Source: an uncultured Candidatus Saccharibacteria bacterium
GTDB lineage: Bacteria > Patescibacteriota > Minisyncoccia > Sungbacterales > HO2-52-23
Reading direction: 5' to 3'
DNA length: 64,000 bases
NCBI GenBank assembly: GCA_964412615.1
Contig: CAYPPK010000001.1
Coordinates: forward strand, 54,983 to 118,982
A program made the translations under genes and the position numbers. The notes under the pieces were generated by a model, which searched no databases, was not told where the DNA came from, and saw nothing but the letters and a program-made list of their open reading frames with translations. Below, in pieces: positions 4,703 to 62,505 of the stretch. Numbering within the stretch: position 1 is the stretch's first letter; each line of letters starts with the position of its first letter.

Positions 4703-5421
4703 TGATTAAAAACTATAAAATACTCGCTTTAATTCCCGCCCGGGGAGGATCCAAACGCGTACCCAGAAAAAATATTAAAGAACTTGGCGGTAAGCCGTTG
4801 CTCGCTTATACCATTGAGCAGGGCAAAGCGTCCAAATACATTGACCGTTTGATTGTTTCCACCGATGACGAAGAGATTGTCAAAGTTGCCAAAGAGTACG
4901 GCGCGGAGGTTCCGTTTACTCGGCCAGCAGAACTTGCCGGGGATGCCGTTACTGATTTTCCGGTGTTCGTGCACACTCTTGAATGGCTCCGCGACCATGA
5001 ACAGTACCGGCCGGATATTGTAGTCCAATTGCGCCCCACTCATCCGCTGCGAAAACCGGAAGACATTGACCGAGCAATTGAGCTTTTGGCCGAACATCCG
5101 GAGGCGGATTCGGTGCGAACCATAAAGGAGCCGGATCAGACACCGTATAAAATGTATAAAATTGGCGATGGGGAATTTCTTGAACCGCTGCTTCCCATTC
5201 CCGGCGTCCCGGAATCGTTCAATCTGCCCCGTCAGAAACTTCCCAAGGCCTATGAGCATGTTGGAGTAGCAGATGTGATGTGGCATCGCACGCTCATGGA
5301 GAAAAAGCAAATGACAGGAGCAAAAATAATTCCCCTTGTTCTTGAGGATTATCCTTATAGCGGCATAAACACCCTGGAGGACTGGGAAAAATATGAGTAT
5401 TGGATCGGCAAGAAACGATGA
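4702..5421 (+). CDS. N-acylneuraminate (CMP-nonulosonate/CMP-KDO type) cytidylyltransferase family protein
   Basis: 239 aa; N-terminal ILALIPARGGSKRVPRKN motif diagnostic of CTP_transf_3 family. Confidence 0.7.
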   Translation: MIKNYKILALIPARGGSKRVPRKNIKELGGKPLLAYTIEQGKASKYIDRLIVSTDDEEIVKVAKEYGAEVPFTRPAELAGDAVTDFPVFVHTLEWLRDHEQYRPDIVVQLRPTHPLRKPEDIDRAIELLAEHPEADSVRTIKEPDQTPYKMYKIGDGEFLEPLLPIPGVPESFNLPRQKLPKAYEHVGVADVMWHRTLMEKKQMTGAKIIPLVLEDYPYSGINTLEDWEKYEYWIGKKR

Positions 5422-13056: not shown

Positions 13057-13921
13057 TATTTTAAAATCCTGGGTCCGCCCACTGGTTGCTTGGGTAGCCA
13101 AGCCCTATCTGGAAAGCTACGCCGGCCTGGAGGATGTTTTTTACCGGAGAAACCATATCGTTGCCTTTGACCTGGAGGATGTGCGGATGAATGTTCGCTC
13201 CCCCTGGAATCCACCTCCCGAAGTCGGGGAATACATAAAAAACGGCCTGCTTTCCAGACCTCCGCTTTATGACGGTCTTTCTCTTAAGTTATGGTCTTTT
13301 GCTTTTGATCGCGGCACGGGGGTTCTTAATCTGGAAGTAAGCTACGGCTGCTACAGCCAGTATTTTTTTACTAACCTTGACGATGAATTTCGGAGGAAAT
13401 TTTCTAACTCGCGATATTGGTTCAATGCTTTAAATATCGGCGCTTTGTTGATTACCGCCGACAACAAATTACGCCTGCATAAGAGATCGCCTGATGCCCG
13501 GCAGTCACCTGGTAAACTGGATACTCCTTGCGGGCACCCCACCGGGATGAAAGAAGTTCCCGCCAAGGAACTTATTCCGGCTGCTTTGGAGGCAATTTTA
13601 AAAAAGGAGTTGGGTTTTGCGGTAACCATAACTTCAACCCTTCCCTTGGTGGCTTTTATTGCTCATCCCAATTTAGATTTTAATTTGATGTATTTGGTCA
13701 AAGTAGCCGAGACCGGCAAAGAATTGGAGGCGCGAAAAATGGCTTTATCAGGCGAGAAGCACAAAGAGGTTTACTTTATTGACGCGGCTACGGAAAACCT
13801 TACTTCTTTTCTTAAATCCAGGCGGCGGGAATTAAGCCGTTCTTTGCCCGAAGCCATACTTCATCTTATTCGCCGAGAGCGTCTGAAAATTCGCCATTCC
13901 CAAAATTCTAAGATGGCATAA
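13043..13921 (+). CDS. hypothetical protein
   Basis: Internal ATG 13043 avoids long overlap with preceding gene; no family recognised with confidence. Confidence 0.35.
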   Translation: MTLPSILKSWVRPLVAWVAKPYLESYAGLEDVFYRRNHIVAFDLEDVRMNVRSPWNPPPEVGEYIKNGLLSRPPLYDGLSLKLWSFAFDRGTGVLNLEVSYGCYSQYFFTNLDDEFRRKFSNSRYWFNALNIGALLITADNKLRLHKRSPDARQSPGKLDTPCGHPTGMKEVPAKELIPAALEAILKKELGFAVTITSTLPLVAFIAHPNLDFNLMYLVKVAETGKELEARKMALSGEKHKEVYFIDAATENLTSFLKSRRRELSRSLPEAILHLIRRERLKIRHSQNSKMA

Positions 13922-15255
13922 CTCGCCAGAACAAAAATAAAGGCGTTTATCGGATAACGATGCCGGCCCTGGTCCGAAAAGCCGGCCGCCAGCGATCCTC
14001 CGGCATAAATCAAAATTATGGCGGCCAGAACAAGGCTGACGAAACGCTCGCGGCCTACATTCCTTAAAGCAAAAATGGCGCCGGCAATCCAGAGTAAGGT
14101 AAGCGCTATCCAGAAAGCGCGCCCGAGGACAGGGATGACGGCAAGCAGCCCCATCGTACTCCAGACGCGGCTGGCAAGCTCCAACGGGCCTTCCCGCAGA
14201 AGCAGCACCGAAGGAGAAAAATCAATCGGGAAATGAGGGATAACTTTAAAGTAGCGAAGATAGGTCGTATAGAGGTCCTGGGTGAAAAAGGAGTTGGCGG
14301 TAATTGCCAGAGTCGCAGCGGTCGCGCGAGGATGCTCAAGCATAATCCGAAAACCTTCTTTGGCCAGCACTGGCCCCAGCGCCGGATTTTCACTGATATC
14401 TTTGGGATCTACGCCGAGACGCTGGGCGAGTGAAAGTTTTAGCTCTTCTTCCACAAGGTGATAGGGGCGCCCCGTGCGATAGGTTTCAACCGAAACCGCT
14501 AGGTCGGTATAAATATTGCGCGCCCCGGTGGTAGTTCCGGAAAGTGAACCGAACTCGGCGTAATTTCTTGTCAGCCACGGAGACATTACGGCGATAAAAA
14601 TCAGCGGAAAAATCAAAACGGTCTGCCAGGAAAGCTTTTTAAATAATGCAGCCAGGAGAAGAAATAACATGGCAACCGGGAAAAGATAATATGGTTCCGG
14701 ACGAGTAAGAGCCGCCAGAGCCAAGACAAGACCGGCAAGGAGAGCGTATACTCTTGAATTATTTTGGACAAATCGGATGAAAAAAAGCGCGGCTAAAGTA
14801 AGAAAAAATACGGCGATGGCGTCAGTCAGCACCGTAAAACTCCAAAGCATGCCTAAGGGCTCAAAAGCGGTAAGGCCCGCGGCTATAAGCGGAACTTTTT
14901 CTCTCTCAGTCAGTTCTAATCCGATTTTCCATACTAAGATCGGCATGAGCGCGGAAAGGATAATTTGAAAAAATATCAAAGGGACTACCGAGTTGCTTAA
15001 GAAAAGAGACGCTGAAACAAGCAAAGAGTAAAGTGGAGGAAAAAAAGCGCTCGCCCGGAAAGGTTCAGAAATATCACGGGAGAAGCCGCGCCCCTCAAGT
15101 AAATTTTGCGCGGTTTGGTAGAATCCTTGGGAATCGGGAAGAAAAAAACCCTGTTCTCCGAAATTGAAAAAAACAAGTCCAGCTAAGGCCAGTCGTATCA
15201 AAAAAGCGCCTATAATTAGGAATAAGAGAAGACGCTGATTCTTGAGCATAATCAT
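13861..15255 (-). CDS. GT-C-fold membrane glycosyltransferase (ArnT/PMT-like, polyprenol-phosphate-sugar dependent)
   Basis: 464 aa, >10 predicted TM helices, layout typical of GT39/GT83-like GT-C enzymes. Confidence 0.55.
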   Translation of the reverse strand: MIMLKNQRLLLFLIIGAFLIRLALAGLVFFNFGEQGFFLPDSQGFYQTAQNLLEGRGFSRDISEPFRASAFFPPLYSLLVSASLFLSNSVVPLIFFQIILSALMPILVWKIGLELTEREKVPLIAAGLTAFEPLGMLWSFTVLTDAIAVFFLTLAALFFIRFVQNNSRVYALLAGLVLALAALTRPEPYYLFPVAMLFLLLAALFKKLSWQTVLIFPLIFIAVMSPWLTRNYAEFGSLSGTTTGARNIYTDLAVSVETYRTGRPYHLVEEELKLSLAQRLGVDPKDISENPALGPVLAKEGFRIMLEHPRATAATLAITANSFFTQDLYTTYLRYFKVIPHFPIDFSPSVLLLREGPLELASRVWSTMGLLAVIPVLGRAFWIALTLLWIAGAIFALRNVGRERFVSLVLAAIILIYAGGSLAAGFSDQGRHRYPINAFIFVLASYAILEFWEWRIFRRSRRIR

Positions 15256-15314: not shown

Positions 15315-15447
15315 ATGAATCCCACACATAACTTGCACAATTTATGTAAACAAAGGTCTATCGGCCATAAATATCACTTGCCTGACAGCTTTGTATACTC
15401 CACAGGAGGATACAGAATTTCTCAGTGCAGGTTATGTGTGGGATGAA
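15315..15447. repeat. palindromic intergenic element family A, copy 1 (133 bp)
   Basis: ATGAA-TCCCACACATAAC ... GTTATGTGTGGGA-TGAA; termini identical to copies at 43543 and 59556; inverted repeat extends to about 19 bp with one mismatch. Confidence 0.8.
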
Positions 15448-16549
15448 GATTCCGCAACTTAATTTAACGCGGTACATGAATTCCGTAAAGAAAGATTGGC
15501 TCTCCCAAATAGAAGAGATTATTTCGTCAGGGAAAATAATCAACGGGCCCCATAAGCAGGGATTTGAAGAAGAATTTGCAAAATTTCTAGGTGTAAAGCA
15601 TGTTCTGGGAGTTGCTTGCGGCACGGATGCTATTGAATTATCACTCCGAGCATTAGGCGTAGGCCCTGGAGACGAAGTCATCACTCATGCCAACGCCTTT
15701 ATTGCCGCCATAGAGCCAGTGGTGGCTTTGGGCGCCAGACCGGTTTTGGTAGACATTTCTGCCGTTGACTACGGGCCTGACCCGGAGGCAATCAAAAAAG
15801 CGATAACTCCCCGCACCAAAGCAATTATTGTTGTACATCTCCTGGGTTTGCCGGTGGACTTTGATGCAATTAACACTGTTGCTCGCCAAGCCAATATTCC
15901 TGTCCTGGAAGATGCCTCGCACGCCCAAGGAGCCGTATATAAAGGAAGAAGAACGGGTGCCTTGGGAGAAATAAATGCCATCAGTTTGGGTCCGGTTAAA
16001 AATCTTTCTACTGTCGGCGATGCCGGTTGTGTCGCAACTGACAGCGATGAACTTTTTGAAAAATTGCGCTATCTTCCGGTTCACGGACAGGTTAAGAAAT
16101 ATAAGCACGCGCTTTACGGCAAAAACAGCCGATTGGACGAAGTGCACGCGTCTTATCTTCGCCTCGGCTTGAAGACCCTGGATGAAAGAAATCAGCGCCG
16201 GAGAGAAATTTATGCCAAGTATAAAAGTGATCTTGTTGATTTGCCATTATCTTTCATACCGGAATTTCCAGACCGAACAGCAGTTTTCCACCAGGCGGTT
16301 ATACATACAGACCAACGCGATCAACTGCGGGAATATCTAAAGGAGCAAGGAGTGGAAACGGGAATGTACTATCCTGATGCCCTGCATGAACAGGAGGCGT
16401 GGAGTAACGCCGGCTTTCCCGGGGGAGGGAATTTCCCCCGAGTTGAAAAGTATGTAAAAACCAACTTATCGTTGCCCATATTTGCCGAGCTTACCGATCA
16501 AGAAGTGGAACACGTGATAAGTTCTGTCCGCTCGTTTTTTGGAAAATAG
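15443..16549 (+). CDS. DegT/DnrJ/EryC1/StrS-family PLP-dependent sugar aminotransferase
   Basis: Start at ATG 15443 (inside right end of repeat); PLP-lysine region and family-typical motifs; ORF track used GTG 15425. Confidence 0.8.
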   Translation: MKIPQLNLTRYMNSVKKDWLSQIEEIISSGKIINGPHKQGFEEEFAKFLGVKHVLGVACGTDAIELSLRALGVGPGDEVITHANAFIAAIEPVVALGARPVLVDISAVDYGPDPEAIKKAITPRTKAIIVVHLLGLPVDFDAINTVARQANIPVLEDASHAQGAVYKGRRTGALGEINAISLGPVKNLSTVGDAGCVATDSDELFEKLRYLPVHGQVKKYKHALYGKNSRLDEVHASYLRLGLKTLDERNQRRREIYAKYKSDLVDLPLSFIPEFPDRTAVFHQAVIHTDQRDQLREYLKEQGVETGMYYPDALHEQEAWSNAGFPGGGNFPRVEKYVKTNLSLPIFAELTDQEVEHVISSVRSFFGK

Positions 16550-42806: not shown

Positions 42807-43541
42807 ATGCCGGTACTTGAAGTTAAAAATTTGGTGAAGATTTATAAGGACTTGGAAGCAGTCCGGGATATTTCTTTTGCGGTGGAAGAAGGAGAAATAG
42901 TGGGGCTTCTGGGGCCCAATGGCGCGGGGAAAACCACTACCATTAACATGATCCTGGGGCTGCTTACACCAACTTCCGGATCAATCAAAGCCTTCGGAAA
43001 AGATTTTGGGAAAAATCGGGAAGAAATTTTAGGGAAAGCGAACTTTGCCGCGGTTTATGCCCAACTGCCAGGCAATCTTTCCGTCTGGCAGAATCTTTTT
43101 ATTTTTGCTTTGCTTTATGGCGTACCTAGTCCAAGCGCGAAGGTGCAACAATTACTTGAAGAATTTGACCTGCAACAATTTTCCCATTCCCGCAGCGGTT
43201 TTCTTTCTTCCGGCGAACAGTCCCGGCTTAATTTAGCCAAAGCCTTGCTGAATAATCCCAAACTTTTGCTTTTAGACGAGCCTACTGCTTCCATTGATCC
43301 TAGCAACGCGCAAATTTTGCGGCAAAAAATCAAACAATATGCAAAGCAATTTAAGGCCGGAATTCTTTGGACCTCGCATAATATGAATGAAATTGACGAA
43401 GTATGCGACCGCGTCTTATTTATCTCCCACGGAAAAATCTTGCTGGGGGGCAACCCGCGTGATCTTCCCGGACAATACGGCAAGAAAAATCTGGAGGAGC
43501 TTTTCATCGCGGTAGCCAGAGAACCCTTATCTTTGCAGTAG
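42807..43541 (+). CDS. ABC transporter ATP-binding protein
   Basis: Walker A GPNGAGKTT, signature LSSGEQSR, Walker B LLLDEPT; start likely ATG 42807 (MPVLEVKNL). Confidence 0.8.
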   Translation: MPVLEVKNLVKIYKDLEAVRDISFAVEEGEIVGLLGPNGAGKTTTINMILGLLTPTSGSIKAFGKDFGKNREEILGKANFAAVYAQLPGNLSVWQNLFIFALLYGVPSPSAKVQQLLEEFDLQQFSHSRSGFLSSGEQSRLNLAKALLNNPKLLLLDEPTASIDPSNAQILRQKIKQYAKQFKAGILWTSHNMNEIDEVCDRVLFISHGKILLGGNPRDLPGQYGKKNLEELFIAVAREPLSLQ

Positions 43542-43542
43542 T

Positions 43543-43679
43543 ATGAATCCCACACATAACTTTCGCTGTGCTTTGCACCAGGAAAAGCCAGTGTGGGAAG
43601 GATAATAAATTTACCAAACCTTTCGTGATTTCTTGGAAAATTAAACCAGGTGGATTGCGAAAGTTATGTGTGGGATGAA
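43543..43679. repeat. palindromic intergenic element family A, copy 2 (137 bp)
   Basis: ATGAA-TCCCACACATAACTTTCGC ... GCGAAAGTTATGTGTGGGA-TGAA; terminal inverted repeat extends to 18+ bp in this copy. Confidence 0.8.
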
Positions 43680-44469
43680 TTTCAAACGTGCGTTCACAAT
43701 TTTTCTCCGTCAAATTTTCCTGCTCAAGAGGAGTTTTCACCGCCTGCTCGGAATTTTTTATTGGTCCATACTGGAACTCTTTTTATGGGGCTTTCTTACC
43801 GTGTATCTTAACCGGGTGGGCGAGAACCGCTTAAGTTTTATTACCGTGGTCATAGGCACGGTAATACTTTGGAACTTTTTGAATCGGATTCAGCAGGGAG
43901 TGGCCATATCTTTTCTCGAGGATGTGTGGGCCAGAAATTTCATGAATCTCTTTGCCTCTCCCCTGAACATTAAGGAATATGTGGGAGGATTGGTTCTGGT
44001 CAGTATCGTAAGCTCCACGGTATCTATTGCTGTCATGGCCCTAGCGGCTTGGCTGCTTTTTGCTTACAATCTTTTTCAATTTGGATTTCTGATGCTTCCC
44101 TTCATTGCCGTGCTCTTTTTATTCGGGCTGGCGCTTGGTTTTTACACTACGGCTATGATCTTACGCTTTGGCCCTTCTTCAGAAATTTTGGCCTGGTCCA
44201 TTCCGGCTCTTCTGCCTCCTTTCTCGGGAGTATTTTATCCTATCGCTACCCTGCCCGGCTGGATACAGCCCATCGCCAACCTCATTCCCATCTCTCATGT
44301 ATTTGAAGGCATGAGAACCATAGTAATTTCCGGCACTTTTGACCCCAACCGGCTTATTTTTGCCTCTTTGCTCGCGGCTTTCTTTTTAGTGGTTTCTTAT
44401 TGGCTGCTTTTGCGCACTTACCGTTTTGTGTTGCGTGAAGGACGGCTAACTCGCTTTCAGGTGGAATAA
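43675..44469 (+). CDS. ABC-2 type transporter permease
   Basis: 6 TM helices, ABC-2 family layout; start ATG 43675 is supplied by the right end of the repeat (ORF track started at ATG 43666 inside repeat). Confidence 0.65.
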   Translation: MNFKRAFTIFLRQIFLLKRSFHRLLGIFYWSILELFLWGFLTVYLNRVGENRLSFITVVIGTVILWNFLNRIQQGVAISFLEDVWARNFMNLFASPLNIKEYVGGLVLVSIVSSTVSIAVMALAAWLLFAYNLFQFGFLMLPFIAVLFLFGLALGFYTTAMILRFGPSSEILAWSIPALLPPFSGVFYPIATLPGWIQPIANLIPISHVFEGMRTIVISGTFDPNRLIFASLLAAFFLVVSYWLLLRTYRFVLREGRLTRFQVE

Positions 44470-57802: not shown

Positions 57803-59559
57803 TGAACCAAGAAACCAAAATTTGCCAAAATTGCAAACAAAACTTCATCATTGAGCCGGAAGATTTTGCGTTCTATGAAAAAATTAAAGTTCCTCCGCCG
57901 ACTTGGTGCCCGGAGTGCAGATTTCAGCGGCGGGCAGTATCCAGAAACGAGCGCAATCTTTTTCGGGTGAAAGACGCGCATGACGGGAAAGAAATCTTTT
58001 CCGGCATTCCGCCGCAGGCCAACCTAAGGGTTTATGAGCGTGATTTCTGGTGGTCAGACGGTTGGGATCCCATGGACTACGGTCGTGATTATGATTTCTC
58101 GCGGCCTTTCTTTGAGCAGTTTAGAGAACTGATGCACGAAGTACCATTTCCTGCACGCAATATACTTCGCCTGATAAATTCGGATTATTCTGATAATTGT
58201 GGAGATTCGAGGAACTGCTATTTGTGTTTTAACGTCGGGAATATAGAAGATTCTCTGTATATGGTTAGTGCCTATAACTGCCGGAATTGTTCTGACATTA
58301 GTATGACTTCAGAAACCGAACTTTCCTATGATTCTTTTGAAGTCGGCAATTCGTACAAGATATTTTTCTCTCATCATATAGATGATTCAAACAATATCTG
58401 GTTTTCTAAGGACCTTACGGGCTGTTCTTATTGTTTTGGATGTATAAATCTGCGCGGCAAGCAGTACTACATTTTTAATCAGCCGTATTCTAAAGAGCAA
58501 TATTTTGAGGAACTCAATAGAATAGATCTTGGCTCCTACGCAAATTTAGTTTCTATCGCTAAACGTGTAGAAAGTTTTTGGCAAAGTAATCCGAAAAAAT
58601 ATTATCATGGAGTACACAATGTTAATTCTACCGGAGACCATATCCATAACAGCAAAAACGTCCAGTGGTGTTTTGGCGTAACCGAGACCGAGGACTCAAA
58701 ATATTGCCAGGAAGTTTATAGAGGAGTGAAAGATTCCTATGACTATATGGACTGGGGGGATAAGTGTGAATTAATATACGAAGCCTGTGAGGTTGGACTT
58801 GGCGGGAGAGAAGTCAAATTTTCAACAGTATGCTGGCCGGAGGTTTTTGATATTGAGTATTCTATGAGATGCGGGTCGTCCTCTAATCTATTTGGTTGTA
58901 TTGGACTACGCAACAAGCAATACTGCATCTTGAACAAGCAATACTCAAAGGAAGATTATTTTAATCTTCGGGAAAAAATTATTAAACACATGGACGAGGT
59001 GCCGTATCAGGATAATAGAGGACATATTTATAAATATGGCGAGTATTTTCCTCCGGAATTTTCCTTAATTGCTTATAACGAAAGCTTAGCGCAAGATTAT
59101 TTTCCGCTAACAAAAGAAGAAGCACTCCGGCAGGGATACTTATGGCGAGATCCAAGCCCTCACGAGTTTCGAACCACAATTGCTGCCGAGGAACTTCCTG
59201 ATCATATAAAAGATGTAACCGACTCCGTCTTGAAAGAAATAATAAAATGTTTCAGTTGCGGCAAGGCTTATCGTTTTATTGAGCCCGAATTTTCTCTTCT
59301 CAAACAAAATGGAATCCCTCTCCCGCGGCTTTGTTGGATTTGTCGGCACAATCGTCGCCTAAAACTCCGTAATTATCCCCACTATTTTAGGAGAAAATGT
59401 ATGTGCGGTGGGACAAAAAGCAAGGATGGAAAATATGAGAATCAAGCCTCTCATTTTCACGGCCAGCAGCATTGCCCGAATGATTTTTTTACAACATTTA
59501 AATCTGACCGGCCTGATATAGTTTACTGCGAGCCATGTTATCAAGCAGAAATTCTATGA
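57802..59559 (+). CDS. Cys-rich protein with homologous N- and C-terminal zinc-ribbon modules and internal duplicated LFGCI.LR.KQY motifs, hypothetical
   Basis: 585 aa; CQNC...CPECR at N-terminus and CFSCG...CWICR at C-terminus flanked by similar FIEPE...P(P)..C motifs; about 30 Cys total. Confidence 0.4.
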   Translation: MNQETKICQNCKQNFIIEPEDFAFYEKIKVPPPTWCPECRFQRRAVSRNERNLFRVKDAHDGKEIFSGIPPQANLRVYERDFWWSDGWDPMDYGRDYDFSRPFFEQFRELMHEVPFPARNILRLINSDYSDNCGDSRNCYLCFNVGNIEDSLYMVSAYNCRNCSDISMTSETELSYDSFEVGNSYKIFFSHHIDDSNNIWFSKDLTGCSYCFGCINLRGKQYYIFNQPYSKEQYFEELNRIDLGSYANLVSIAKRVESFWQSNPKKYYHGVHNVNSTGDHIHNSKNVQWCFGVTETEDSKYCQEVYRGVKDSYDYMDWGDKCELIYEACEVGLGGREVKFSTVCWPEVFDIEYSMRCGSSSNLFGCIGLRNKQYCILNKQYSKEDYFNLREKIIKHMDEVPYQDNRGHIYKYGEYFPPEFSLIAYNESLAQDYFPLTKEEALRQGYLWRDPSPHEFRTTIAAEELPDHIKDVTDSVLKEIIKCFSCGKAYRFIEPEFSLLKQNGIPLPRLCWICRHNRRLKLRNYPHYFRRKCMCGGTKSKDGKYENQASHFHGQQHCPNDFFTTFKSDRPDIVYCEPCYQAEIL

Positions 59560-59664
59560 ATCCCACACATAACCCTGGGCAAGATATACAATCAGCTTTG
59601 CATAAAATACTTATAGCTACTTTGTTGTTGGGGAAAACCGGCACAAAGTTATGTGTGGGATGAA
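59556..59664. repeat. palindromic intergenic element family A, copy 3 (109 bp)
   Basis: ATGAA-TCCCACACATAAC ... GTTATGTGTGGGA-TGAA; left ATGAA contains the TGA stop of the upstream gene, right end supplies ATG 59660. Confidence 0.8.
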
Positions 59665-60079
59665 AAAAAAGAAGGTAATGGTTTTTGGGGTTTTTGATAA
59701 ATTGCATCAAGGGCATATTTATTTTCTGAAGCAGGCAAAAAAATACGGTGAAGTTGTGGCCGTGGTGGCTCCTCATAAAGTTGTCGCTCAACTTAAAAAA
59801 AAGACGCTACTTCAATCAGAAAAAGAGAGAATGCGGGCCTTGAAAAAACTGGTTGCCAAAGCAATTTTGGGTGATAAAGTACAAGGTAGTTATATGGTGT
59901 TAAAGAGGTATAAGCCGGATATTATCTGCCTGGGGTATGATCAGAAGTGGTTAAAAAAAGACCTTAAAGAGAAGATAAGGAAGAGGGCAATTCCTCGCAT
60001 TCTATTGATTGATATAAAGTCTTATTTTCCAGAGAAATTTCATTCTTCTTTGTTAAGAAAAGTCCCCATTAAAAATTAA
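59660..60079 (+). CDS. cytidylyltransferase-like nucleotidyltransferase (HxGH family; FMN adenylyltransferase/glycerol-3-P cytidylyltransferase-like)
   Basis: FGVFDKLHQGH motif of the nucleotidyl-transferase alpha/beta phosphodiesterase superfamily; start ATG 59660 from repeat. Confidence 0.55.
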   Translation: MKKKKVMVFGVFDKLHQGHIYFLKQAKKYGEVVAVVAPHKVVAQLKKKTLLQSEKERMRALKKLVAKAILGDKVQGSYMVLKRYKPDIICLGYDQKWLKKDLKEKIRKRAIPRILLIDIKSYFPEKFHSSLLRKVPIKN

Positions 60080-60507: not shown

Positions 60508-62505
60508 ATGGCCAAAAACGAAAAAGATATTATTTATATAGGCAAATGCAATTTCCGCGGCAATGAGCGGGTTTTTGGCATTAAAACCAAAGATCGCCGC
60601 CAGCATATGTATGTAATCGGCAAGACCGGAGTGGGCAAGACCGCGCTTCTTAAAAATTTAGCGCTGCAAGATATCCGAGCGGGAAGAGGTTTGGCCATAA
60701 TTGATCCGCACGGTGAATTCGTGGAGGAAGTTCTCTCGCAAATTCCGCCAGAGCGAACCAACGATGTAATTTATTTCAATCCCGTTGATACGGAATTTCC
60801 CATCGGATTTAATGTTTTGGAAGTACCGGATCAAAAATACAAACACTTGGTAGTGTCTGACTTGTTGGGCATTTTTACTAAAATCTGGGCCAATGTCTGG
60901 TCGGCCCGCATGGAATACATTCTGCAAAATTGCATCATGGCCCTTTTGGATACTCCCGGCACCACGCTTTTGGGGATTCCGCGTCTTTTGGTAGACAAGG
61001 ACTATCGGCAAAAAATAATTGCCAACGTCAAAGATCCGGTAGTAAAATCCTTCTGGGTGCATGAATACGAGACCTGGCGGGATCAATTTAGAAACGAAGC
61101 CATAGTTCCAATTCAAAATAAGGTAAACCAGTTTTTAAATACCGCTTTTATCCGCAATATCGTAGGCCAGCCCAAATCCACGCTTAATATCCCAGAGATC
61201 ATGAATTCCCGGAAGATCCTTCTGGTTAATGTTTCCAAGGGAAGAATAGGAGAGGATAATTCCGCGCTCTTGGGCGCCATGATTATTACCAAAATACAAC
61301 TCGCGTCCATGGAACGCGTGAGAATTCTGGAAGACGAACGGGTGGATTTTTATTTATATGTGGATGAGTTCCAGAATTTTGCTACCGATTCTTTTGCCAG
61401 CATTTTATCCGAAGCAAGAAAATACCGACTAAACATTATTATCGCGCATCAATATGTAGGGCAGTTGGTAACTGATGTCTCCACTAAAGTCCGCGACGCG
61501 GTATTTGGTAACGTAGGAACTATGATTACATTTCGGGTGGGAGCTACGGATGCCGAATTTCTGGAGCCGGAATTTACTCCCGAGTTCATGGGACAGGATA
61601 TAATAAATCTTCCCAACCATCATGTTTATTTGAAATTAATGGTGGATGGAGTTACTTCTCGGCCGTTTTCTTCCGTTACGCTGCCCCCTTTGCAGTTTGA
61701 AACCGATCCGGAAGTGCGGGAGAAAATCATCAAGGTTTCGCGGCAGCGTTATGCTAAACCAAGAGTAGAAGTGGAAGATAAAATTTCACGCTGGAGTGGA
61801 CTTTCTGGAGAATTAGAGGAGAGGGGGAGCAGCGGAACCCCAGCTCTGCCGCCAGGCCAACTTATAGAAACTCCTTGCTGGAACTGCGGCAAAACCGCCA
61901 CCGTGCCGTTTAAGCCCGATGGCCGCCGGCCGGTTTATTGCATGTCCTGTCTTAAGCAGATAGAAGAGGGCAAACTTATTCCTATTCCCGAACGCATGCC
62001 TAAAGTTGGCCGGGAAAAATACAGCCAGTCTCTAGAAGGACTGGGAATTGAATTTGGAGCAGCAAGTAAGGAGACTCGGCCTTCTTATAACCAAAACCAA
62101 GATAGAAAGGAGCCAATGGCAGTTCCTGATAGAATTGGGAATCGTCCCGCTATGCCCAAAGGAAATAATTTTCAGCGCAATAAGCGACGGGAGGATGAAC
62201 GCGTGAAAACGCCCAGCAAAAAGGAAGAAATAAAAATGGGGATACGCTCGCAACCCGTGGTGCGGTCGGCTTCGGGAGTAAAGCCTATTTCACTTTCTTC
62301 TTTGGAGCCCAAAATAGAAGAAGAAAGTCCGACGAACGAAGAAAAAAAATCTCCAAATAAATTTCCCGGATTAAAAGAGCTTTTGCGCGAAGTACTCAAA
62401 ACTGATCAAAATCATAAAGAAGAAATAAAAACGACAGAAAATAAAAAAAGAGAAGCAAAAGAAAATAGCAAAATAGTAAAACCCGGAGATGTAATAAAAT
62501 TTTAA
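60508..62505 (+). CDS. VirD4/TraG/TraD-like P-loop ATPase with C-terminal zinc-ribbon and Lys/Glu-rich tail (paralog of 56175..57629)
   Basis: Walker A GKTGVGKT, Walker B FYLYVDEFQN, AHQY; C-terminal CWNCG...CMSC zinc ribbon and low-complexity K/E-rich tail. Confidence 0.6.
   Translation: MAKNEKDIIYIGKCNFRGNERVFGIKTKDRRQHMYVIGKTGVGKTALLKNLALQDIRAGRGLAIIDPHGEFVEEVLSQIPPERTNDVIYFNPVDTEFPIGFNVLEVPDQKYKHLVVSDLLGIFTKIWANVWSARMEYILQNCIMALLDTPGTTLLGIPRLLVDKDYRQKIIANVKDPVVKSFWVHEYETWRDQFRNEAIVPIQNKVNQFLNTAFIRNIVGQPKSTLNIPEIMNSRKILLVNVSKGRIGEDNSALLGAMIITKIQLASMERVRILEDERVDFYLYVDEFQNFATDSFASILSEARKYRLNIIIAHQYVGQLVTDVSTKVRDAVFGNVGTMITFRVGATDAEFLEPEFTPEFMGQDIINLPNHHVYLKLMVDGVTSRPFSSVTLPPLQFETDPEVREKIIKVSRQRYAKPRVEVEDKISRWSGLSGELEERGSSGTPALPPGQLIETPCWNCGKTATVPFKPDGRRPVYCMSCLKQIEEGKLIPIPERMPKVGREKYSQSLEGLGIEFGAASKETRPSYNQNQDRKEPMAVPDRIGNRPAMPKGNNFQRNKRREDERVKTPSKKEEIKMGIRSQPVVRSASGVKPISLSSLEPKIEEESPTNEEKKSPNKFPGLKELLREVLKTDQNHKEEIKTTENKKREAKENSKIVKPGDVIKF

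Follow-up and report, generated by a model that had tools for sequence, protein, structure and literature searches.

In a stretch of 64,000 nucleotides from an uncultured Candidatus Saccharibacteria bacterium (assembly GCA_964412615.1, contig CAYPPK010000001.1, positions 54,983 to 118,982 of the forward strand; hereafter the window, whose coordinates are used throughout), three short palindromic elements of 100-128 bp stand exactly on the start codons of three unrelated genes. We consider it probable, at roughly 70%, that they are non-autonomous members, comparable to miniature inverted-repeat transposable elements (MITEs), of a family of very small, hairpin-ended GIY-YIG nuclease cassettes that insert on start codons in bacteria of the candidate phyla radiation (CPR). 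This reading is carried by the anatomy of the elements, their position at start codons, the duplication of their flanks, empty sites in relatives, the spread of identical copies, a covarying stem, and a GIY-YIG gene that goes with these ends. How the elements move, and how the host gene is translated behind the hairpin, we infer by analogy.

Anatomy, position and spread of the elements

Each element is delimited by a pair of inverted repeats. The 13-mer TCCCACACATAAC is found exactly on the plus strand at 15320, 43548 and 59561, and its reverse complement, GTTATGTGTGGGA, ends at 15443, 43675 and 59660, each pair spanning 100-128 bp. These six exact matches compare with 0.73 expected, and none of 100 shuffled sequences reached six. 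All three copies carry ATGAA on the left and TGAA on the right, so the identical termini and flanks reported by a sequence-only reading of this DNA are correct at six ends out of six. The 13-bp arms lie 74-102 bp apart. Beyond the 13-mer the inverted repeat gains 6 copy-specific bp in copies 1 and 2 (19 bp in total) and barely any in copy 3; the earlier statement that it extends in every copy is accurate for the first two alone. As had been proposed, every copy folds into a long hairpin, and does so on either strand, with z-scores of -6.8, -5.9 and -3.9 for copies 1, 2 and 3.

Copy 1 illustrates the arrangement. The left direct repeat ATGAA (15315-15319) is the old start codon of a DegT gene plus 2 nt, TGAA being the duplicated part. 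It is followed by the left stem arm (15320-15338), composed of the conserved TCCCACACATAAC and the copy-specific TTGCAC, by a non-coding interior of 86 bp (15339-15424) without a nuclease open reading frame (ORF), and by the right arm (15425-15443), GTGCAG plus GTTATGTGTGGGA, whose final A is the A of the rebuilt ATG. Copy 2 extends over 43543-43679, with ATGAA at 43543-43547, the left arm at 43548-43566, the interior at 43567-43656, the right arm at 43657-43675 and TGAA at 43676-43679. Copy 3 occupies 59556-59664 (ATGAA 59556-59560, left arm 59561-59573, right arm 59648-59660, TGAA 59661-59664), and its stem consists essentially of the 13-bp arms. All three lie on the plus strand, and promoter-like or terminator-like sites inside them do not exceed shuffled expectation.

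The family is not confined to this genome. A scan of one genome per species for 13-mers paired across a gap of 61-121 nt yielded 64 further copies of the same repeat pair in 61 loci (loci are given L numbers below), 67 copies with those of the window. All taxonomically named metagenome-assembled genomes (MAGs) with copies are Patescibacteria/CPR, and the classes represented, very different from one another, are Saccharibacteria, Paceibacterota, Sungiibacteriota, Azambacteria, Yanofskybacteria and Wolfebacteria. The fetched contigs of some MAGs hold a dozen copies, and the viral contigs scanned for the paired-repeat pattern gave no match. Identical or nearly identical short copies occur at different loci (85/85 and 84/86 identical positions), and the interior of copy 3 agrees at 45 of 62 positions with that of an element at a different locus (L017). 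One ribosomal-protein operon holds two identical copies, one at the start of rpmC and the other at that of rplX, which indicates that insertion is compatible with essential gene expression.

In 57 of the 67 copies (85%), an ORF of 90-1000 residues begins at the last A of the element followed by TG; several of the exceptions are cut by locus ends or nested. The earlier suggestion that the right end of the element provides the ATG of the following gene is thus supported for its A, and far beyond the window. To the left of the element, the bases are A-T-G-A-A in 46-54 of these 57 copies. Left and right 4-mers are identical in 50 of the 67 copies, as TGAA/TGAA in 41, TGGA/TGGA in five, TGAG/TGAG in two and TTGA/TTGA in two; one of the last (L008) is followed by an ORF of 459 residues that starts at TTG. 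Since the flanks vary together on the left and on the right, they behave as a 4-bp target-site duplication, and since the element ends in A, the duplicated TG regenerates the start codon. The flank had earlier been viewed as a possible fixed 5-bp duplication of ATGAA. Its character as a target-site duplication is supported, and the duplication is best read as 4 bp (TGAA) that is not fixed, and as one that regenerates an existing start codon and creates no new one.

Comparison with relatives revealed element-free sites for two of the three window copies. At the site of copy 2, the closest orthologue of the ABC-2 permease gene (90% identity, L063) reads ...caaTGAtATGAGcccc and has no element, and the site is likewise empty in L064 and L065. 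In a further orthologue (83% identity, L062), the same start codon carries a 106-bp element of a different repeat, TCCCGTTAGTGAC...GTCACTAACGGGA, flanked by ATGAA and TGAA. At the site of copy 1, a DegT orthologue of 76% identity (L157) reads atccATGAAAATCCCC, element-free and with the same MKIPQL N-terminus, and one of 67% identity (L158) is also empty. Together with the near-identical copies at different loci, these empty sites bear out the mobile, MITE-like nature proposed for the elements. In a strain with a 100%-identical DegT, the contig (L156:1, Logan contig SRR12113383_2516483) begins exactly at ATGAATCCC. Such a start is the usual behaviour of assemblers at repeats and suggests that the element breaks short-read assemblies.

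Covarying arms and nuclease-encoding cassettes

The hairpin first noticed in three copies covaries across the family. Past the 13-mer the arms are complementary over a median of 6 bp, with 27 different 6-mers and 386 of 410 pairs Watson-Crick. When other repeat families are included (71 distinct arm pairs), 15 of the 19 stem pairs change on both sides, the outer TCCC/GGGA alone being invariant. In this alignment 93.5% of the cells are paired, compared with 73% in shuffles and 33-52% with the partner slid, columns 6-16 having been pre-selected for pairing by the scan and columns 17-24 not. Mismatches of the G.T and A.C types are equally frequent (seven each). This equality argues for a constraint at the level of DNA and not for selection on one transcribed strand, and selection for an RNA stem on one strand was rejected on this ground.

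The interiors are not conserved between copies, as had been stated for the window, and the (C)AGCTTTG core that the three window interiors seemed to have in common is not a feature of the family. They are nevertheless not featureless: their polarity with respect to the host gene is fixed. In 45 of 57 copies A outnumbers T (p = 1e-5), and a partial copy of the right arm (TGTGGG) is present in the left part of the interior in 27 copies against two in the reverse orientation.

Longer elements with the same ends disclose a coding form. In the fetched loci, two pairs of the same 13-mer lie 287 and 295 bp apart, have the same flanks and enclose an ORF with GIY-YIG motifs; full-length elements with these ends and flanks were found in L036, L037, L066, L074 and L075. 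The full-length form measures about 285-305 bp and consists of inverted repeats of about 19 bp, with arms about 260 bp apart, around a single gene. Each repeat is made up of the invariant TCCC...GGGA tips, 9 family-specific bp and 6 copy-specific, complementary bp. The gene product is a single-domain protein of 85-93 residues, nearly the whole of which matches the Pfam GIY-YIG family (PF01541, E = 1e-16 to 1e-19).

In some full-length copies, such as L037 (MSPTHNLRWYFVY...), the nuclease ORF begins at the ATG of the left flank and runs through the left repeat. The L037 ORF ends with a TAA inside the 6-bp stem extension; this stop is in frame with the rebuilt host ATG and precedes it by 12 nt. 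Close homologues form 92 clusters in the protein database; many begin with MNPTHN, which is the left repeat translated, and some end with KLCVG, the translated right repeat. Cassettes at the start codons of tig, pilM and a third gene, independent of one another, repeat this layout exactly, and in one of the three the arms show a compensatory change (ATACC/GGTAT).

A metagenome scan for the cassette nuclease gave at least 493 relatives. Among the best 80 loci of these, together with the context loci, we identified 64 non-redundant cassettes bracketed by inverted repeats of 11-23 bp that belong to many repeat families and nearly all have CCC...GGG tips. The cassettes measure 282-358 bp, except for two with doubtful repeat calls (214 and 216 bp). 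Direct repeats of at least 4 bp surround 29 of the 64; when the right flank was displaced as a control, none of 64 had them. Start codons are the site of cassette families with TGAA-flanked repeats, and a repeat that ends in G gives GTG as the rebuilt start. In 20 of 31 cassettes the stop codon of the nuclease precedes the rebuilt ATG by 14-15 nt; in two, the codons overlap as ATGA.

Short and long forms have the same ends and the same targets. They share the 13-mer, the flanks, the 6-bp extensions (e.g. TTACAC/GTGTAA and TTACGC/GCGTAA) and, in places, up to 11 further subterminal bases. Several marginal nhmmer matches join them on the same strand, three of which map to the same part of the ORF. 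Sequence similarity of this kind suggests that the short copies may have arisen from long ones by internal deletion.

Other repeat families obey other target rules. A sister family with GCCCCTCACC repeats (L125, L141, L145 and L146) has clean target duplications in the form of 7-bp direct repeats (CAATTAG, CACTTGG, CGCGTAG and CCTATAG) and no gene start at its right end. At L012:3253-3566, a third family (CCCCGTAGTGAGAATCCGAT...ATCGGATTTCTACTACAGGG) brackets a GIY-YIG ORF and has ATG duplicated on both sides, ATATG before the element and TATGGCAGAA after it, the start codon being targeted in a different register.

Known systems, mechanism and alternative explanations

Among described systems, the nearest is that of the Ssn nucleases, characterised only in 2025. 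These single-domain GIY-YIG enzymes of about 94 residues bind hairpin repeats of the TCCC...GGGA type and make strand-specific cuts in single-stranded DNA immediately 5' of them, and cleavage also works on a hairpin assembled from two separate halves (PMC11893778). Ssn genes are often bracketed by the repeats, a layout which the authors liken to an insertion sequence (IS) without showing mobility; neither CPR nor start codons are mentioned in the paper (PMC11893778, Chenal et al., Nat Commun 2025). Our elements resemble Ssn and its NTS, dRS3 and SRM repeats in several respects: a small (about 90 residues) single-domain GIY-YIG protein, here in the full-length relatives and not in the window copies; a cognate palindrome whose stem starts with TCCC and ends with GGGA; a short, conserved, non-palindromic flank that provides orientation (GTCA-TTCCC in NTS, TTCA-TCCC on the bottom strand here); numerous genomic copies, rarely within genes; and a gene bracketed by its own repeats. 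Differences are equally clear. Here the two halves of one stem flank a gene or a 60-100-bp interior, while an SRM gene has a complete hairpin with a short loop at either side, and our elements are not complete hairpins of 20-50 nt, one minimal short-loop hairpin (L026) excepted. The stem of 19 bp with 13 bp of family-specific sequence, the exact start-codon position, the duplicated TGAA and the empty sites in relatives also set them apart, as does the distinct, highly conserved C-terminal tail of the cassette nuclease (REKSLKLHAQGLRRLKERLR).

Judged by profile comparison, the cassette nuclease, a possible member of the cd10448 clade, is clearly homologous to an Ssn-like CPR protein whose gene is preceded by a near-perfect NTS (hhalign 98.5%, 36% identity), the C-terminal tails being different. 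Its best PDB matches are SLX1 and UPF0213, at E of about 1e-3. Canonical Neisseria-type NTS hairpins (GTCATTCCCGCGAA[AG]GCGGGAATC[CT]AG) are themselves present in CPR MAGs, at L029:241 (minus strand) and 555 (plus strand), L036:982 and L053:6358 (minus strand), one of them directly 5' of a typical Ssn-like GIY-YIG gene. Their presence indicates that a classical Ssn/NTS system coexists with the start-codon cassettes.

The elements sit at the TGAA of a gene start (ATGAA) and the 4 bp are duplicated; their ...GGGA end restores the host ATG, the old ATGAA staying on the left. On the analogy of Ssn and NTS, the following course of events can be envisaged. The cognate nuclease may recognise the two-arm stem in single-stranded DNA and cut beside the stem foot, host replication or repair then completing excision and insertion. 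Short copies might be mobilised in trans, because they have kept stem and flank. Behind a full-length copy the host gene would be translated by termination-reinitiation; behind a short copy, the AUG at the hairpin's 3' foot would itself serve directly as the start, in a genome where most genes lack Shine-Dalgarno sequences.

Several observations weigh against this interpretation. GIY-YIG enzymes hydrolyse DNA and, to our knowledge, do not rejoin it, so that transposition would need host functions. The search for a GIY-YIG gene in the 64-kb window found none, and a cognate enzyme in this genome has to be assumed. The homology between short and long interiors is weak, with one nhmmer match at E = 0.003, and in only 3 of 31 full-length DNA copies does the nuclease share the reading frame of the old host ATG. 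The direct repeats are not of constant length, measuring 3-5 nt in some copies and 7 nt in another repeat family. Finally, the preference for start codons is stronger than the target sequence and the avoidance of gene disruption would lead one to expect. ATGAA is the commonest start pentamer in the window (14 of 54 genes, or 17 at corrected starts), and among non-disruptive sites in the window 46% of ATGAA and 20% of TGAA are start codons. With the window as a proxy for all genomes and with crude gene calls, the expected share is 20-46%, compared with 85% observed, and the excess is unexplained. A target preference combined with purifying selection was for this reason rejected as the full cause of the start-codon position.

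Some of these features can be met in other systems. Like the IS200/IS605 family and the REP/RAYT system (REPINs), the cassettes combine an enzyme that would recognise hairpins and act on single-stranded DNA with a short, specific target by the hairpin foot, a fixed orientation to that target and abundant gene-less palindromic derivatives. Those systems, however, employ HUH/Y1 transposases with covalent intermediates, do not duplicate the target, and their REPs carry GTAG, whereas here we find a GIY-YIG hydrolase and duplicated flanks. The Correia elements of Neisseria are similar in size (100-150 bp), terminal inverted repeats, duplicated target and copy number, and are transcribed with neighbour genes as long hairpins. 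Their repeats measure 26 bp, the duplicated target is TA and there is no tie to start codons, and we know of no GIY-YIG-encoding parent for them. Homing endonuclease genes such as T4 Seg and I-TevI also place a selfish GIY-YIG gene between or overlapping genes with minimal harm to the host. They differ in having DNA-binding domains and in copying themselves into the same allele by recombination, without the terminal inverted repeats and target duplications at unrelated loci that are both present here.

One alternative, which we consider rather improbable, is a regulatory function. The elements would then be primarily functional RNAs or cis-regulatory hairpins placed where translation begins, whether as translational operators, as RNase III processing sites or as stabilisers between cistrons; duplication would have spread them, and their mobility would be secondary. 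The strong predicted folds, the invariant position at the AUG, the fixed polarity (A over T in 45 of 57 copies, the TGTGGG motif 27 times forward against two as reverse complement), the copies in an essential ribosomal-protein operon and the start-codon enrichment above neutral expectation all agree with such a role. Against it stand the close orthologues that are element-free and retain the same N-terminus, the unconserved interiors, the equal numbers of G.T and A.C mismatches, which give no sign of one-strand selection, and the protein encoded by the full-length versions. Neither do the window copies contain promoter or terminator signals, and Rfam 15 gave no match at the gathering threshold in the window and no relevant match at E <= 1 in five loci. 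We therefore regard a shared regulatory or structured-RNA module, which the sequence-only reading had also entertained, as an unlikely primary cause, and do not take the window copies for riboswitches; a secondary co-option as a regulatory hairpin at the RNA level is conceivable.

About as improbable, in our estimation, is a MITE of the classical kind, derived by internal deletion from an IS that has a DDE transposase and makes a 4-bp duplication at TGAA; some copies would carry the GIY-YIG gene as a mere passenger. Terminal inverted repeats, short duplicated flanks, small size, many copies, presence/absence polymorphism and the nested insertions in L007, L041 and L034 are just what such an element would show. 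Yet the IS transposase that had been anticipated as the partner of these ends did not appear: the only longer elements so delimited in about 770 kb of fetched loci hold the single-domain GIY-YIG ORF alone. Moreover, the 64 non-redundant GIY-YIG genes are each enclosed by their own repeat family, a co-variation of gene and ends that is not the pattern of a passenger, and the inner 6 bp are complementary in 27 variants, although a transposase binding the two ends separately would not need them to pair.

Two further possibilities carry little weight. Invertible promoter segments (invertons) flipped by a site-specific recombinase would account for inverted repeats around a segment of about 100 bp just 5' of genes, including polysaccharide-type genes. 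This is very improbable in view of the constant orientation of the interior to the gene, the lack of promoter-like sites inside and of a recombinase gene seen beside the copies, and the duplicated direct flanks, empty sites and nuclease ORF of the long forms, which do not fit. The likeness to integron attC sites between cassettes, in the inner ends ...ATAAC / GTTAT..., the variable centre of 60-100 nt and the intergenic position, is superficial, and we give this explanation practically no credence: the sites occur dispersed among housekeeping genes such as those for SecA and ribosomal proteins, the stems are perfect without extrahelical bases, the order of the motif is opposite in the second repeat family, duplicated flanks surround the sites, and no integrase was noticed in their surroundings.

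Returning to the GIY-YIG cassettes, a bolder proposal, which we put forward only tentatively, concerns the full-length form itself. The cassette of about 290 bp, a pair of 19-bp inverted repeats and one gene for a GIY-YIG protein of 85 residues, might be an autonomous transposable element that uses Ssn-type hairpin-guided single-strand cleavage and parasitises start codons. The host translation start would be used for the nuclease and the ribosome handed back via the rebuilt ATG, while gene-less derivatives such as the three in the window would come to populate even essential operons in the reduced genomes of CPR bacteria. We see a realistic chance that the full-length form represents a new, exceptionally small class of autonomous mobile element; it would be smaller than any IS known to us. 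Searches of the literature for the sequence, for MITEs in Patescibacteria and for GIY-YIG proteins with CPR or start codons found no description of this arrangement, matches to the 13-mer being confined to unrelated eukaryote and vector papers.

If the elements are indeed GIY-YIG cassettes and their derivatives, Ssn-type nucleases would gain a biological role as the engine of a mobile element with an unusual insertion logic, one that lands on a start codon, duplicates it and restores the ORF. For CPR genomes, the family probably accounts for a source of assembly breaks, as in L156, and explains mis-called N-termini (MCGM..., MNPTHN...). It also constitutes a natural set of nuclease/stem pairs with different specificities, and makes the start of translation beside a 19-bp hairpin without a Shine-Dalgarno sequence directly testable.

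Host genes and unusual copies

The host gene of copy 1 encodes a DegT/DnrJ/EryC1 aminotransferase (15443-16549, plus strand); its ATG occupies 15443-15445 and the right direct repeat TGAA 15444-15447. The gene upstream, at 13861-15255, is on the minus strand, so that copy 1 lies between divergent genes and not, as had been stated for every copy, between a stop codon and the next start. Copy 2 follows the TAG stop codon (43539-43541) of an ABC ATPase gene, and an ABC-2 permease gene (43675-44469, plus strand) begins at its rebuilt ATG. In copy 3, the TGA of the left ATGAA is the stop codon of an upstream ORF of 585 residues, and the gene beginning at the rebuilt ATG (59660-60079, plus strand) encodes a cytidylyltransferase-like protein. 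Just 3' of this copy, an ORF at 60508-62505 has TrwB/TraG-type coupling-protein domains and a treble-clef zinc finger, a possible sign of a neighbouring type IV secretion or DNA-transfer system.

At 9 nt before the rebuilt start, the right repeat has another ATG in the same frame (ATG TGT GGG ATG), located at 15434, 43666 and 59651 in the window. Because of this ATG, ORF finders give unrelated proteins a spurious MCGM N-terminus. A Shine-Dalgarno-like motif precedes 8 of the 54 called genes of the window and upstream regions are A/T-rich; the genome seems to initiate translation largely without Shine-Dalgarno pairing. Provision of a Shine-Dalgarno sequence by the element was considered and rejected, as the similar motif it contains lies 35-44 nt before the ATG, too distant, and the genome barely uses such motifs. 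A conserved upstream ORF starting from the left ATG was likewise dismissed, since its length and frame vary.

A few copies depart from the usual form. The minimal element of 28 bp at L026:1573-1600 consists of two 13-mers joined by AA, with TAAA on both sides; it is not at a start codon and adjoins a terminator-like GC hairpin. Nested or composite copies occur at L007:6104-6241, L041:4284-4449 and L034:7183-7271 (Saccharibacteria MAG CAYJWH01). In these, a small hairpin element with TAAAACC on both sides is placed within an element like copy 3, giving the order L-R'-R, in which the two right arms are alternatives. A degenerate form of the hairpin with a short loop (TCCCACACATAATTTATGTATGGGA) is found at L021:5006-5033, inside an RNase P RNA gene (4972-5349, minus strand; Rfam bacterial RNase P class A, 116.7 bits), where it may form an element-derived helix in a structural RNA.

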